From Marinobacter sp. (GTDB lineage Bacteria; Pseudomonadota; Gammaproteobacteria; Pseudomonadales; Oleiphilaceae): a stretch of DNA of 64,000 bases. The stretch lies in NCBI RefSeq assembly GCF_041687235.1, contig NZ_JAWLCH010000010.1, positions 1,900 to 65,899 of the forward strand. The letters are read 5' to 3'. Below, piece after piece: positions 36,584-43,830 of the stretch (position 1 is its first letter; each line of letters starts with the position of its first letter). A model generated the notes under the pieces. The model saw nothing but the letters and a program-made list of their open reading frames with translations. It made no database searches and was not told the DNA's origin. The position numbers were made by a program, and so were the translations under genes.

Positions 36584-37921
36584 GTGCGAAAGCGCCACGA
36601 GTTTATTGAGGAATCGAGAAAACAGTGGAGTTCTGAGCCTGCGTTTGTGGCCTCCATGGCCGCAGCGGCTGTGGGGTTGGGGAACCTGTGGCGGTTCCCG
36701 TACATGGTGGGGGAGAACGGCGGTGGCGCCTTTGTGGTGGCTTACCTGCTGGCTCTGATTGTGGTGGTGTTGCCCATCATGATCCTGGAAGTTTCTGCCG
36801 GCCGGCTTTCCAAGGGCAGCACGGTTCAGACCTACCGGCAGGTGAACCGCTTCGGAGTGGTGTACGGGTGGTTTGTGGTGCTCATCACCATGGCTATTAC
36901 CAGCTATTACCTGGTGATTACCGGCTGGACCCTGGGATATGCCGTGGATGCGGTCACAGACGACCTTCGGGTGTTTGGCGAGTTTTCTGCAGGGTACAAC
37001 TCGCTCTGGTATTTCTTCGTGGTTACCGTGCTTGGAGCGATTATCCTGGCCAAGGATGTTACGGCCATTGAGCTGATGTCGAAGATCCTGATGCCGGTGT
37101 TGATCATTGTGATGATCGGTCTGGTGATCTTCGCCAGCCGCACGCCCGGTTGGGAGCAAACCAAGGATTTCTTTTTTCAGGTCGACTGGAGCCGGATGGC
37201 TGACGGCAAGCTCTGGGCGTTTGCGTTCGGGCAGGCCTTCTACACCCTGGCGATTGGCCAGGGCTATCTGGTGACCTATGGCAGTTTTATTCCCCGGCAG
37301 ACTCACGTGCCGCGGGCCTGTCTGATTGTAGCGGGAACGGAGACCAGTGTGGCGCTGCTGGCGGGATGGATGATCTTTCCGTTTGTCTTCAGCCTTGGCA
37401 TGGAACCCACGGAAGGCAGTCAACTGGCGTTTGTGACCATGCCCCGGGTGTTTGAGGATATGGCCGGTGGCTATTGGGTAGGCACGCTGTTTTTTGGTCT
37501 GTTTTTCATGGCGGCGTTCAGTTCCAGCCTGGCCGGGCTGAAGGTGATGATTGCCGCGGTGGCGGAGGAGTTCCGATTGAGCAACGGTCGGGCGGTCAGT
37601 CTTGTTACCCTGGTAATGCTGGTGCTGGGAACGGCCTCGGCGTTGAGTTTCACGCCGCTGGAATGGACCATTGCCGGGGATCCGGTGCTGGATGTCATTG
37701 ACCGGGTGGCCGGTGGCAATGTGATTATCTTCTCCGGGGTCCTGGGCGCAGCTCTTTTCTGTTGGTTTATTCCGCCAGCGAGAATCCGCACCGTGTTGGG
37801 TACCGAGAGCCGCTGGTGGGAGTGGCGTATGTATCTGGTTGGCCGTTACCTGCCATTGGTGATGCTGCTCTGGATCGTAGTCACCTACGCCCTGAATCAG
37901 CTGGGGCTTACCCCGGCCTGA
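36584..37921 (+). CDS. Sodium-dependent transporter, NSS/SNF family
   Basis: AVGLGNLWRFPY...NGGGAF, AFGQAFYTLAIG; GTG 36584 after GGAGA RBS (start uncertain). Confidence 0.92.
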   Translation: MRKRHEFIEESRKQWSSEPAFVASMAAAAVGLGNLWRFPYMVGENGGGAFVVAYLLALIVVVLPIMILEVSAGRLSKGSTVQTYRQVNRFGVVYGWFVVLITMAITSYYLVITGWTLGYAVDAVTDDLRVFGEFSAGYNSLWYFFVVTVLGAIILAKDVTAIELMSKILMPVLIIVMIGLVIFASRTPGWEQTKDFFFQVDWSRMADGKLWAFAFGQAFYTLAIGQGYLVTYGSFIPRQTHVPRACLIVAGTETSVALLAGWMIFPFVFSLGMEPTEGSQLAFVTMPRVFEDMAGGYWVGTLFFGLFFMAAFSSSLAGLKVMIAAVAEEFRLSNGRAVSLVTLVMLVLGTASALSFTPLEWTIAGDPVLDVIDRVAGGNVIIFSGVLGAALFCWFIPPARIRTVLGTESRWWEWRMYLVGRYLPLVMLLWIVVTYALNQLGLTPA

Positions 37922-39824
37922 CCTGGAACTGTCGGGGGTCGATTTTCAGTTTTTTCAGGCGTGAGGTGAGGGTGGTCGGTTTGATGCCCAGCATTGCGGC
38001 TGCGCCGTCGTCTCCGAAGACCTGGCCGCCACTCATTTCCAGCGCTCGGGTAAGGTTCTGTTTCTCCAGCTCCCTGAGCTCGTGCTCTGTCATCAGTTCG
38101 CCATTGAAGTGTCGGGCTGGCGGTGTTTGTGCTGCGCCAGGCCGGACAGTGGCGTCTTGCCCGGGCAGGTCCAGGTCCAGCCGGCCGTCGGCGGTGATGA
38201 CCTGTCGCTCAATCACGTTCTCCAGTTCCCGTACGTTGCCGGGCCAATGGTAGGCCTTCAGCGTCTCCACGTCTCGTTCCCTTAACACCAGTTGGGGGCG
38301 GTTGAACTTCTGGCAGGCCCGGTTCAGGAATTCCTGGGCAAGAATGGGAATGTCCTCCAGGCGTCGGCGCAGGGGAACGGATTCGATTGGGAAAACATTC
38401 AGGCGGAAGTAGAGGTCTTCCCGGAAGGTTTTCTGCTGGACTTCTGATTTCAGGTCCCGGTTGGTGGCGGCGATGACCCGGACATCCACCGCCCGGGTGC
38501 GGTTCTCTCCTACACGTTCGAACTGTTGGTCCTGCAGAACCCTGAGCAGTTTTCCCTGAAGCTCAAGTGGGATTTCACCCACCTCGTCCAGGAACAGCGT
38601 GCCGCCATCGGCCAGCTCGAATCGGCCCACCCGGTCACTGACCGCTCCGGTGAAGGCGCCCCTGATGTGGCCAAAAAACTCACTCTCGAACAGGTCCTTG
38701 GGGATGGCCGCACAATTCACCCGGATCAGCGGCCGATCCCGCCGGCTGCTGGACTGATGGATAGCGCGGGCAATCAGTTCCTTCCCGGTGCCGGATTCCC
38801 CTGTGACCAGTACGTTGGCATCGGTGGGTGCCACCATGCCGATGCGGCGCACAATGGCTTTGATCGCCTCGCTCTGGCCAAAGATTTCGTGAAAGTGGTA
38901 TTCCGCACTGAGCTCCTCCTGCAGGTAAGCGTTTTCAATTTCCAGGCGGTGTTTCAGGGTTTCCACCTCTTCCAGCGCTTTCTGCAGTTCTTTCTGGGCC
39001 TCCAGTCGGGCTGAGATGTCCCGGAATACCACCACGGCGCCTACCGGATGCCCGTTATCCAGAATCGGTGTACTGGTGTATTCCACGGGAAACCCGCTGC
39101 CGTCCTTGCGCCAGAACCAGTCCTCGCCCACACGTTTCACGCTGGCATCGCGGAAGGCCGCGTAGATCGGGCAATCCTTGAGGGGGTAAAGGCTGCCATC
39201 GGCGTGAGAGTGATGCACGACGCGGTGAAGAACCCGGCCCATCAGTTCGTCAATTCGCCACCCCAGCATTCGTTCGGCGGCTGGATTGGCGAAGGTGCCC
39301 CGCCCCTCCGCATCCACGCCGTAGATGCCTTCTCCAACCGCATGCAGGATCAGCTGATTCTCCCGTTCCATGTCCTTGAACAGCTCCTCGACCCGTCGCC
39401 ACTCCAGCAGTCCGCCGCGGTGGTAATGGTTGGCATCGTGGCGCTCCCGAAGGGTGCGAAGCTGCCGTCGGTCGCGGAGCAACAACAGCACATTCTGGGA
39501 TTCCGCTTCGCCGACCCGGGAAGAGGAGATTTCCAGCTCGACGGTATGACCGTCCCGGTGCTGGAGGAAGAAATCCCGGCTCCAGCCGTGACTGCGAAAT
39601 AGGGTTTCCTCGGTGAACGCAATCAGTTGGGGCCGCTGGTCTGTGAACAGGTGGGTGCATGGCGTTCCGACGAGAGATTGCCGGTCGGTGCCTATCATCC
39701 GGCCCATGGCGCTGTTGGCCGCCAGAATCAAATCCCGGGCAGCGTCCACCAGCAGGGCCGCTTCTGGCAGGTGGTCAATCCAGTTACCAGTGATTTCAGG
39801 GTGGATGATGGCTTCGGTATTCAT
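37908..39824 (-). CDS. PAS-PAS sigma54-dependent (AAA+) enhancer-binding activator
   Basis: GESGTGKE Walker [35 protein letters not shown]-terminal Fis-type HTH; two N-terminal PAS-like regions. Confidence 0.95.
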
Positions 39825-39873
39825 GGCGATTTCCTGAGTCAGTCCCCGAAGGAAGAAACAACCCCTGTGCCAA

Positions 39874-42444: not shown

Positions 42445-43359
42445 ATGAGTAAAGCATTCCTGGAAGTAGATGGCTTGTCCAAAGTGTACCCGGACGGCCA
42501 GGGCGGCGAGCTGACCGTCTTCGAGGATATTCGTTTTGCCCTGGAGAAAGGCGAGTTTGTCTGCATTATCGGCCACTCCGGTTGCGGTAAATCCACGATC
42601 CTTAACGTACTGGCGGGTCTGGACGAAGCCAGTTCCGGCAACGTGGTGATGAATGGCAAGGAAATCAAAGGGCCGGGCCTTGAGCGCGGCGTGGTGTTCC
42701 AGAACTACAGCCTGCTGCCCTGGAAAACCACGCTGAACAACATCGTCTTCGCCGTGCGCGCCCGCTGGCCCGGCTGGTCCAAGGAGAAGGTGAAAGAGCA
42801 CAGCGAACGCTACCTGAAAATGGTGGGACTGGATCATGCCCTGAACCGCAAACCATCACAGCTCTCCGGCGGCATGCGCCAGCGGGTGAGTATCGCCCGG
42901 GCTTTCGCCACCCAACCGGAGCTTCTGTTGCTGGACGAACCCTTTGGCGCACTGGATGCGCTGACCCGGGGCGTGATCCAGGACGAACTGGTCAAGATCT
43001 GGGAAGAAACCCGCCAGACCGTGTTCATGATCACCCACGATGTGGACGAGGCCATTCTGCTCTCCGACCGCATCTTCCTGATGTCTAACGGCCCCAACGC
43101 CCGCATCGCTGAAAGCGTGAAAGTGGACATCCCGCACCCGCGGGCCAGGGCCACCATCTTCCAGAACCCCGCTTACCACAAGACCCGGGATTACCTGGTG
43201 GACTTCCTGGTCAATCGAAGCGGCTCGGCCCTGCCGGATAAAGACGGAACCCCGAAAGTTGTCGAGCCTGGCAAAGGCGTTGCCCAGTCATCGCAGGCGC
43301 CTGCCGACTCTGAAACTGAAGCCGAATCTGAAACTGCCGCTCGCGCGGTGAATGCCTGA
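42445..43359 (+). CDS. NrtD-like ABC ATPase (CynD-like)
   Basis: GHSGCGKST, LSGGMRQRV, LLLLDEPF, THDVDEA; ATG 42445. Confidence 0.93.
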   Translation: MSKAFLEVDGLSKVYPDGQGGELTVFEDIRFALEKGEFVCIIGHSGCGKSTILNVLAGLDEASSGNVVMNGKEIKGPGLERGVVFQNYSLLPWKTTLNNIVFAVRARWPGWSKEKVKEHSERYLKMVGLDHALNRKPSQLSGGMRQRVSIARAFATQPELLLLDEPFGALDALTRGVIQDELVKIWEETRQTVFMITHDVDEAILLSDRIFLMSNGPNARIAESVKVDIPHPRARATIFQNPAYHKTRDYLVDFLVNRSGSALPDKDGTPKVVEPGKGVAQSSQAPADSETEAESETAARAVNA

Positions 43360-43386
43360 CGTTAAAACCTGAAAGAGGAAACAGCC

Positions 43387-43830
43387 ATGATGAACAAAGA
43401 ATTGATGACCGCGAAAATCCTGGAAGCCAAAGTCTCCAAAGGCATGACCTGGGAAGCCATAGCCGAGGCTATCGGCATGTCCCCGGTGTTCACCACCTCG
43501 GCAGCACTGGGTATGAACAGCCTGACAGAAGACAAAGCCTTTGCTCTGTGCGAAACCCTCGGTCTCGACAAACCGGTAGCCGAAGCCCTGCAGGTCTGTC
43601 CGAAAAAAGCCTGGGACGGCGCCGTTCCCCAGGATCCGCTGATCTACCGTTTGTACGAAGTGGTGGGTGTGTACGGCGACACCATGAAAGAGCTCATCCA
43701 TGAGAAGTTTGGTGACGGCATCATGAGTGCCATTGATTTCACCATGGACATCGAGAAGGAAGAGAATCCGAAGGGCGACCGTGTCGTGGTTACCATGAAC
43801 GGGAAGTTCCTGCCTTATAAAGCCTGGTAA
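43387..43830 (+). CDS. cynS: Cyanase (cyanate hydratase)
   Basis: DPLIYRLYE, EKFGDGIMSAIDF, GKFLPY cyanase signature. Confidence 0.97.
   Translation: MMNKELMTAKILEAKVSKGMTWEAIAEAIGMSPVFTTSAALGMNSLTEDKAFALCETLGLDKPVAEALQVCPKKAWDGAVPQDPLIYRLYEVVGVYGDTMKELIHEKFGDGIMSAIDFTMDIEKEENPKGDRVVVTMNGKFLPYKAW

Follow-up and report, generated by a model that had tools for sequence, protein, structure and literature searches.

In Escherichia coli, cyanase is produced from the cynTSX operon together with the carbonic anhydrase CynT and the permease CynX, which stands in place of an ATP-binding cassette (ABC) transporter; the operon is controlled by the LysR-type regulator CynR, and no sigma-54 activator takes part. 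Cyanobacteria combine the same cyanase with an ABC transporter in a cynABDS operon that is controlled by NtcA, again with no sigma-54 activator. Here, we describe a cyanate gene cluster in a 64,000-nucleotide stretch of DNA from Marinobacter sp. (hereafter the window; assembly GCF_041687235.1, contig NZ_JAWLCH010000010.1, positions 1,900 to 65,899) in which the same cyanase and the same type of transporter are encoded divergently from a predicted sigma-54 activator. The closest described counterpart is the cynFABDS system of Pseudomonas pseudoalcaligenes (oleovorans) CECT5344, where CynF, a sigma-54-dependent regulator of the Fis family, is encoded divergently from cynABDS (PMC6627978, Saez et al. 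2019, and its reference 43). In that strain cynABDS is a single transcript, which cyanate induces and ammonium represses, and CynF is essential for its expression: a cynF mutant contains no cyanase activity and has lost growth on cyanate (PMC6627978). A sigma-54 site upstream of cynA is marked in the same paper, which also reports comparable arrangements from alpha-, beta- and gammaproteobacteria (PMC6627978).

The cyn cluster of Marinobacter and its relatives

The genes of the Marinobacter cluster are listed here with their positions in the window.

37908–39824, minus strand: cynF, sigma-54 enhancer-binding protein of 638 residues, assigned by Pfam and NCBIfam domains
40138–41559, plus strand: cynA, periplasmic binding protein of the NrtA/CynA type with 473 residues and a Tat signal (NMT1_2, E 6.5e-93)
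41562–42389, plus strand: cynB, ABC permease (ntrB TIGR01183, 220.7 bits against a cut-off of 209)
42445–43359, plus strand: cynD, ABC ATPase (ntrCD TIGR01184, 310 bits against a cut-off of 291.8)
43387–43830, plus strand: cynS, cyanase of 147 residues with Cyanate_lyase (PF02560) and CYNS_N (PF21291) domains

An interpretation of this DNA made from its letters alone (the sequence-only reading) had described a PAS-PAS-AAA+ gene with a helix-turn-helix (HTH) domain that diverges from an NrtABD-like ABC operon plus cynS. It had read the cluster as a sigma-54-dependent operon for cyanate uptake and cyanase with a dedicated PAS activator. The open reading frame (ORF) map and our profile searches agree with this layout, and the domains, the family scores and the tested Pseudomonas counterpart support the function. 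The activator contains PAS1 (residues ~20–130), PAS2 (~150–272), an AAA+ domain (313–548) and HTH_8 (583–626). Its Pfam matches are two PAS domains, Sigma54_activat (E 8.7e-74), AAA_lid_14 and the Fis-type HTH_8. The motifs for ATP hydrolysis and sigma-54 contact are intact, namely Walker A (GESGTGKE, 342), ESEFFGH (380), GAFTGA (389) and Walker B (LFLDE, 410). CynS exceeds the cut-offs of both of its protein families (TIGR00673, 175.1 bits against 113.3; NF002773, 210 bits against 150). A single rpoN gene is present in the genome (C3:33450–33926).

To place the locus among its relatives, we scanned one genome per species and compared 80 related loci. The window locus is 75–95% identical to other Marinobacter loci and 51–62% identical to many relatives from gamma- and alphaproteobacteria. 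The activator gene diverges from cynA in 61 of the 80 loci and directly from cynS in nine. Two relatives connect this comparison to the genetically tested system: locus L015 (Pseudomonas sediminis) reproduces the published N-terminus of CynF and locus L031 reproduces the published intergenic sequence. Since these two loci match the published CECT5344 sequences, we used them as stand-ins for that system. Identities between the window proteins and these stand-ins are 56–57% for CynF, 67–68% for CynA, 75% for CynB, 66–68% for CynD and 60–61% for CynS.

The Marinobacter and CECT5344 clusters share gene order, divergent layout, activator architecture, a sigma-54 promoter before cynA and three boxes of the form ACGA-N4-TCGT (see below). 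Both also lack a carbonic anhydrase gene. For Marinobacter this absence had been pointed out by the sequence-only reading and holds for the cyn cluster within the genes scanned (35175–46231); the sole beta-carbonic anhydrase match of the genome lies on another contig (C4:109165–109620). No LysR regulator, cynT carbonic anhydrase or cynX permease was found among the genes scanned in this same interval. The two systems differ in genus and in flanking genes, which in Marinobacter encode a sodium symporter and an acetolactate synthase.

The best explanation for these data, in which we place high confidence, is that the locus is the Marinobacter member of the cynFABDS cyanate-assimilation system, with CynF predicted to act through the boxes and the sigma-54 promoter. 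The sequence-only reading had called this a different regulatory design, a description that stands relative to CynR of E. coli and NtcA of cyanobacteria. However, the combination of a sigma-54 promoter with a PAS activator has already been described and genetically tested as cynFABDS/CynF and is not new in kind (PMC6627978). Cyanate is a widespread nitrogen source in marine environments, and Marinobacter carries a predicted CynF-controlled route for its uptake and conversion by cyanase. The cluster itself is ordinary, and the useful by-product of its analysis is a prediction for the CynF enhancer. The added value lies in the comparative definition of this enhancer, in the link to NitA and in two leads on nitrogen control.

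Promoter, predicted enhancer and possible nitrogen control

The 313-bp intergenic region between cynF and cynA contains the elements listed here.

39875–39888 (inner 39876–39887), unstranded: box 1 of the predicted upstream activating sequence, TACGAAAAATCGCA, inner ACGAAAAATCGC, with the core ACGA-N4-TCGC
39897–39910 (inner 39898–39909), unstranded: box 2, TACGAAAAATCGTG, inner ACGAAAAATCGT, starting 22 bp after box 1
39914–39927 (inner 39915–39926), unstranded: box 3, TACGAAATGTCGTA, inner ACGAAATGTCGT, starting 17 bp after box 2
39996–40011, plus strand: PcynA, predicted -24/-12 promoter TGGCAC-N5-CTGC, TGGCACAAACCCTGCG / TGGCACaaaccCTGCg, a pattern match at a conserved position

The -24/-12 promoter that the sequence-only reading had placed upstream of cynA is indeed present, with a predicted transcription start near 40022. 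In about 50 orthologous loci the corresponding position likewise holds a canonical GG/GC promoter, and the sigma-54 site marked in the published CECT5344 figure has the same relative location. The same reading had announced three CTACGA-N4-TCGTAG-like palindromes 70–120 bp further upstream. Three boxes do lie there, 70–121 bp upstream of the -24 element, with the start of box 3 at a distance of 81 bp. All three fit ACGA-N4-TCGY, but only box 3 is a full palindrome of the CTACGA/TCGTAG type. Five matches to the box pattern occur in the window where 0.45 are expected; none of 100 shuffles reached five, and four of the five matches fall within the 53-bp stretch of these boxes. A box match at 3426–3438, accompanied by a TGGCAC-like site at 3240, lies inside an ORF (2494–4098) and was taken as chance.

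A motif search upstream of orthologous operons had been suggested as a check on these sites, and its outcome considerably strengthens the predicted binding sites. For the search, 70 intergenic regions were oriented toward either cynA or cynS, and each box was allowed a single mismatch to ACGA-N4-TCGT. Sixty of these regions, from alpha- and gammaproteobacteria, contain the triplet, while 100 shuffles produced none. The box starts are separated by 21–23 bp and then, in 59 of the 60 triplet loci, by exactly 17 bp. The anchored consensus of all three boxes is cTACGAaATnTCGTa; its ACGA and TCGT positions are 89–100% conserved, and the flanks are otherwise unalignable between the two classes. Between box 3 and the -24 element, distances form separate classes of 60, 69–71, 79–85 and 94 bp, and none lie outside these classes (Rayleigh test with a period of 11, p ~0.01 on 11 distinct distances). 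Marinobacter (81 bp) and Pseudomonas (69 bp) differ by about one helical turn. Classes spaced in this way are the pattern expected if the activator must face a fixed side of the helix relative to the promoter.

The array is also rare. Boxes 2 and 3 form the only pair with 17-bp spacing in the entire 4.31-Mb genome. A scan of 401 evenly drawn gammaproteobacterial genomes with a very strict exact-triplet pattern returned one hit and no control hits, and this hit sits between homologues of cynA (66% identity) and cynF (55%). The Marinobacter genome itself misses the exact pattern because box 1 ends in TCGC.

From these comparisons we conclude that the three palindromes are very probably the upstream activating sequence of CynF. 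This enhancer prediction is well supported. The boxes are unmarked in the papers that we searched, even though they can be seen in a published figure. The Pseudomonas sequence in Figure S1 of PMC6627978 contains ACGATATCTCGT, ACGAAATCTCGT and a third box, machine-read as ACGAGATTTTCGT (13 letters), none of which is annotated in that promoter figure. In locus L031, which matches the published region, all three boxes have 12 letters. The array also occurs where cynF diverges directly from cynS in the absence of cynABD. It is kept in seven of nine such loci (L010, L021, L038, L041, L047, L048, L050, L062 and L066), the first of which belongs to another Marinobacter.

Between enhancer and promoter, only three of 45 loci contain a strict consensus site for integration host factor (IHF). 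The window is not among them; its sole candidate is a match with one mismatch, AAACAATGGGTTA, which we regard as unsupported.

Two further elements of the intergenic region and the cynA leader suggest a possible route for nitrogen control.

39857–39872, minus strand: sigma-54-like element facing cynF, TGGCAC-N5-TTGT, TGGCACAGGGGTTGTT, abutting box 1; pattern match
40078–40094, unstranded: NtrC-type palindrome in the cynA leader, TGCACCGTGAGAGTGCA, with half-sites as at the glnA gene of this genome

The element facing cynF carries a non-canonical -12 motif, TTGT in place of TTGC. Elements of the form TGG[CT]-N7-TTG occur on the cynF strand 5–8 nucleotides from box 1 in 24 of 59 loci, all of them gammaproteobacterial (shuffle mean 0.27), and the canonical C at -12 is almost never present in them. 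A search of 37500–44600 found no sigma-70 consensus promoter for cynF. The element may be a non-canonical candidate promoter of cynF. In alphaproteobacterial loci the start codon of cynF adjoins box 1 in place of the sigma-54-like element.

Relative to the predicted start of PcynA, the NtrC-type palindrome is located at about +64; the putative promoter of cynF is some 240 bp away, with the palindrome on its upstream side. Its half-sites equal those of two sites upstream of the glnA sigma-54 promoter (C18, -294 and -281), and it is one of only five TGCAC-N7-GTGCA sites in the genome, which also contains ntrC. Sites of the form GCAC-N7-GTGC are present in 17 of 70 loci (shuffle mean 0.57), and their half-sites are kept with variable spacers across Marinobacter and several other gammaproteobacteria. 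Such a site is present in Marinobacter but was not found in the Pseudomonas cyn loci. We consider it a likely site of predicted NtrC binding. The site and the sigma-54-like cynF element co-occur only partly. A hypothetical cascade from NtrC through cynF to cynABDS would explain repression by ammonium.

Together, these elements suggest the following mechanism. CynF dimers would bind the three TACGA-N4-TCGTA boxes, whose centres lie some 140, 118 and 101 bp upstream of the predicted start, with one dimer per box, so that three dimers could supply one AAA+ hexamer. In the presence of cyanate, which CynF may sense directly, the hexamer would spend ATP to open the sigma-54 promoter at 39996–40011. 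A single transcript from PcynA would then encode CynA, CynB, CynD and CynS, the last of which would convert cyanate and bicarbonate to ammonium and CO2. Nitrogen control may enter through the NtrC-type site and the sigma-54-like cynF promoter. The Marinobacter part of this model draws on gene content, the promoter, the conservation and genome-wide uniqueness of the array and the presence of rpoN. Dependence on CynF, induction by cyanate, repression by ammonium and the single cynABDS transcript come from the probable Pseudomonas orthologue only.

That three dimer sites serve one hexamer is inferred by analogy with E. coli NorR, which reportedly uses three enhancer sites upstream of norVW (Tucker et al. 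2010, Nucleic Acids Research). NorR is likewise a sigma-54 activator that responds to a small nitrogen-containing molecule, and its three closely spaced inverted repeats are proposed to template a single hexamer. It differs in sensing through a GAF domain with non-haem iron, in its DNA motif (GT-N7-AC) and in its target. The resemblance is one of working principle only.

NitA, the PAS domains and alternative explanations

CynF has a close paralogue in NitA, the divergently encoded sigma-54 regulator of the Nit1C nitrilase cluster nitBCDEFGH for cyanide and nitrile assimilation (PMC11049912). Five of the loci in our comparison are of the NitA type and contain no cyn genes (L018, L019, L024, L033 and L060, from Pseudomonas and Halopseudomonas). 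Their neighbours encode a hypothetical protein, a nitrilase, a radical SAM protein, a GNAT protein and a member of the AIRS family. These Nit1C neighbours are absent at the window activator, which is adjoined by cynABDS and the sodium symporter, and no second full-length member of the CynF/NitA family occurs in this genome. Over their full length NitA and the window CynF are 54–56% identical, with the same PAS-PAS-AAA+-HTH layout and the same His/Cys motif in PAS2.

The likeness extends to the DNA. In NitA loci, a sigma-54 promoter is likewise preceded by ACGA-N4-TCGT boxes near-identical to those of CynF loci, and the first two boxes are 22–23 bp apart. CynF and NitA have the HTH recognition helix KPTTLxSRxK in common, which explains the shared boxes. 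L018 and L033 have a third box, which starts 18 bp after the second (17 bp in CynF loci) at a distance of 103 bp from the promoter; this box is degenerate in L019, L024 and L060. Some strains encode both regulators, for example Pseudomonas sp. REP124 (L019 and L038), so that cross-talk is possible.

Several observations speak against the window activator being a CynF that controls a cyanate operon through these elements. Sequence identity cannot separate CynF from NitA, and for this reason the assignment is based on gene context and on the shared promoter architecture. A maximum-likelihood tree places the window protein in a Marinobacter cynA-linked clade, but the NitA rows of the tree form one strongly supported clade nested among the cyn-linked rows, with weak deep branches. 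The promoter pattern as such is not above chance, with seven window matches at up to one mismatch against 6.07 expected; the call of PcynA follows from its position and its conservation in orthologous loci, not from pattern frequency. Relatedness among many of the 70 loci (Bradyrhizobium, Marinobacter) inflates the triplet counts as a measure of independent lineages, although even so the array spans two proteobacterial classes. Finally, cyanate is a putative substrate of CynABD, and Pseudomonas mutants in cynBD still take up cyanate (PMC6627978).

A more specific question is what CynF responds to. The sequence-only reading had proposed that the PAS activator may sense cyanate or a related ligand directly, a proposal that our results speak neither for nor against. 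Induction by cyanate may be indirect, with CynF integrating nitrogen status (NtrC/PII), redox or metal signals through the His/Cys motif of PAS2, or a cyanate-derived metabolite; we consider this possible but unlikely. In an alignment of 63 N-terminal regions, PAS2 is strongly conserved (54–72% identity) and carries the invariant residues H200, H204 and C218 within HxxxHHsHxDGsxYPxxxCPIYAAF (residues 200–226, ~39147–39227 on the minus strand), whereas PAS1 is only ~28% identical among orthologues. An AlphaFold2 model of CynF residues 1–300 contains two PAS folds and a long joining helix (mean pLDDT 86.7). Profile searches of the PDB returned generic PAS domains only (best E 2.9e-09, RbdA), and Foldseek searches with the model returned tandem-PAS sensors at low TM-scores (DosP, PpsR, NifL, FixL and MmoS); neither gave a clue to the ligand, and no solved structure with the His/Cys motif was found in the PDB searches. 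We discarded the idea that this motif is a signature specific for cyanate, as other proteins share this PAS2 subtype, often in duplicate, namely histidine kinases and an HD-GYP protein (P0040, P0035 and P0064) as well as longer activators. PAS2 is therefore a generic sensory module, and possibly holds a cofactor or a metal.

The generic character of PAS2 and the low conservation of PAS1 are in line with indirect sensing, as is the conserved NtrC-type site. Moreover, Pseudomonas limited for nitrogen already shows a basal cyanase activity that depends on CynF when cyanate is absent (PMC6627978, Table 1). On the other hand, cyanate raises Pseudomonas cyanase activity about 15-fold over nitrogen limitation, and CynF is required for this response (PMC6627978). 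Furthermore, nine of the 13 positions with fixed differences between CynF and NitA fall in PAS2, as expected if this domain discriminates between effectors, with only five related NitA sequences in the comparison.

It is improbable that the transporter imports nitrate, nitrite or bicarbonate and that the cyanase is a passenger in a general operon for nitrogen oxyanions. Such an operon would account for the permease and ATPase scores above the NCBIfam cut-offs for nitrate transporters. It would also fit the observations that Pseudomonas cynBD mutants use cyanate through nitrate/nitrite transporters and that mutation of cynF alters the regulation of nitrate reductase (PMC6627978). Against this stand the synteny of the transporter genes with cynS and cynF in 61 loci, the induction of the Pseudomonas operon by cyanate (PMC6627978) and the absence of nitrate or nitrite reductase genes from the Marinobacter cluster, as judged from the ORF map and profile searches.

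Least probable of all is that another protein, such as a repressor or nucleoid protein, occupies the boxes in place of CynF, or that they are conserved without a regulatory role while CynF binds elsewhere. Their role is deduced from sequence comparison, they are unmarked in the published Pseudomonas figure and also precede nitA-linked operons, so that they are not exclusive to cyn genes. On the other side, they travel with the CynF/NitA family through both alpha- and gammaproteobacteria; a sigma-54 promoter always lies downstream of them, their internal spacing is exact to the nucleotide and their promoter distance is phased. The two regulators share their recognition helix, and the array is unique in the genome.

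CynF as a cyanate regulator acting through the three boxes thus remains our preferred explanation. A broader reading that joins the two regulators is speculative, and we would rather bet against it than for it. According to this reading, CynF (for cyanate) and NitA (for cyanide and nitriles) might be one family that reads one enhancer code, three TACGA-N4-TCGTA boxes templating one hexamer. The main differences would lie in a few residues of the His/Cys PAS2, a domain that might carry a metal or cofactor for binding the pseudohalide, and in box geometry, with 17 bp (CynF) or 18 bp (NitA loci with a third box) between boxes 2 and 3 and with different promoter distances. In gammaproteobacteria, NtrC bound at TGCACC-N5-AGTGCA in the cynA leader might then act across the shared enhancer to fire a non-canonical sigma-54 promoter of cynF. 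The boxes common to CynF and NitA raise the question of cross-talk in strains that contain both regulators, and they provide a defined DNA target for cyanate or cyanide biosensors.

Further features of the cluster

The following features of the cluster were also recorded.

42395–42417, plus strand: hairpin CCGGCACCGG-caa-CCGGTGCCGG with a perfect 10-bp stem, read directly from the sequence
43873–43900, plus strand: terminator-like hairpin with a T run, 3' of cynS, from a consensus scan only

The number of terminator-like sites in the cyn region is not above shuffle expectation, and no Rfam families were found in 37500–44600. The cynD ORF is open from a TTG codon at 42346, and an ATG at 42445 is preceded by the ribosome-binding site GGAGA. 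Most alignments with CynD homologues begin near residue 33–34 of the ORF, and the sequence comparison makes ATG 42445 the more likely start over TTG 42346. The hairpin at 42395–42417 sits in the resulting 55-bp gap between the cynB stop codon and this likely start.

CynS contains R88-x-x-E91 (RLYE at 88) and S114 (SAIDF at 114), and we take this Arg/Glu/Ser set to be the catalytic residues as in the E. coli enzyme. CynA begins with an extension of about 78 residues that contains a CGCPEC cysteine motif followed by the Tat motif SRRAFMK (CynA residues 1–100, window 40138–40400). Similar cysteine-bearing extensions are present at the published N-terminus of Pseudomonas CynA and in Bradyrhizobium.

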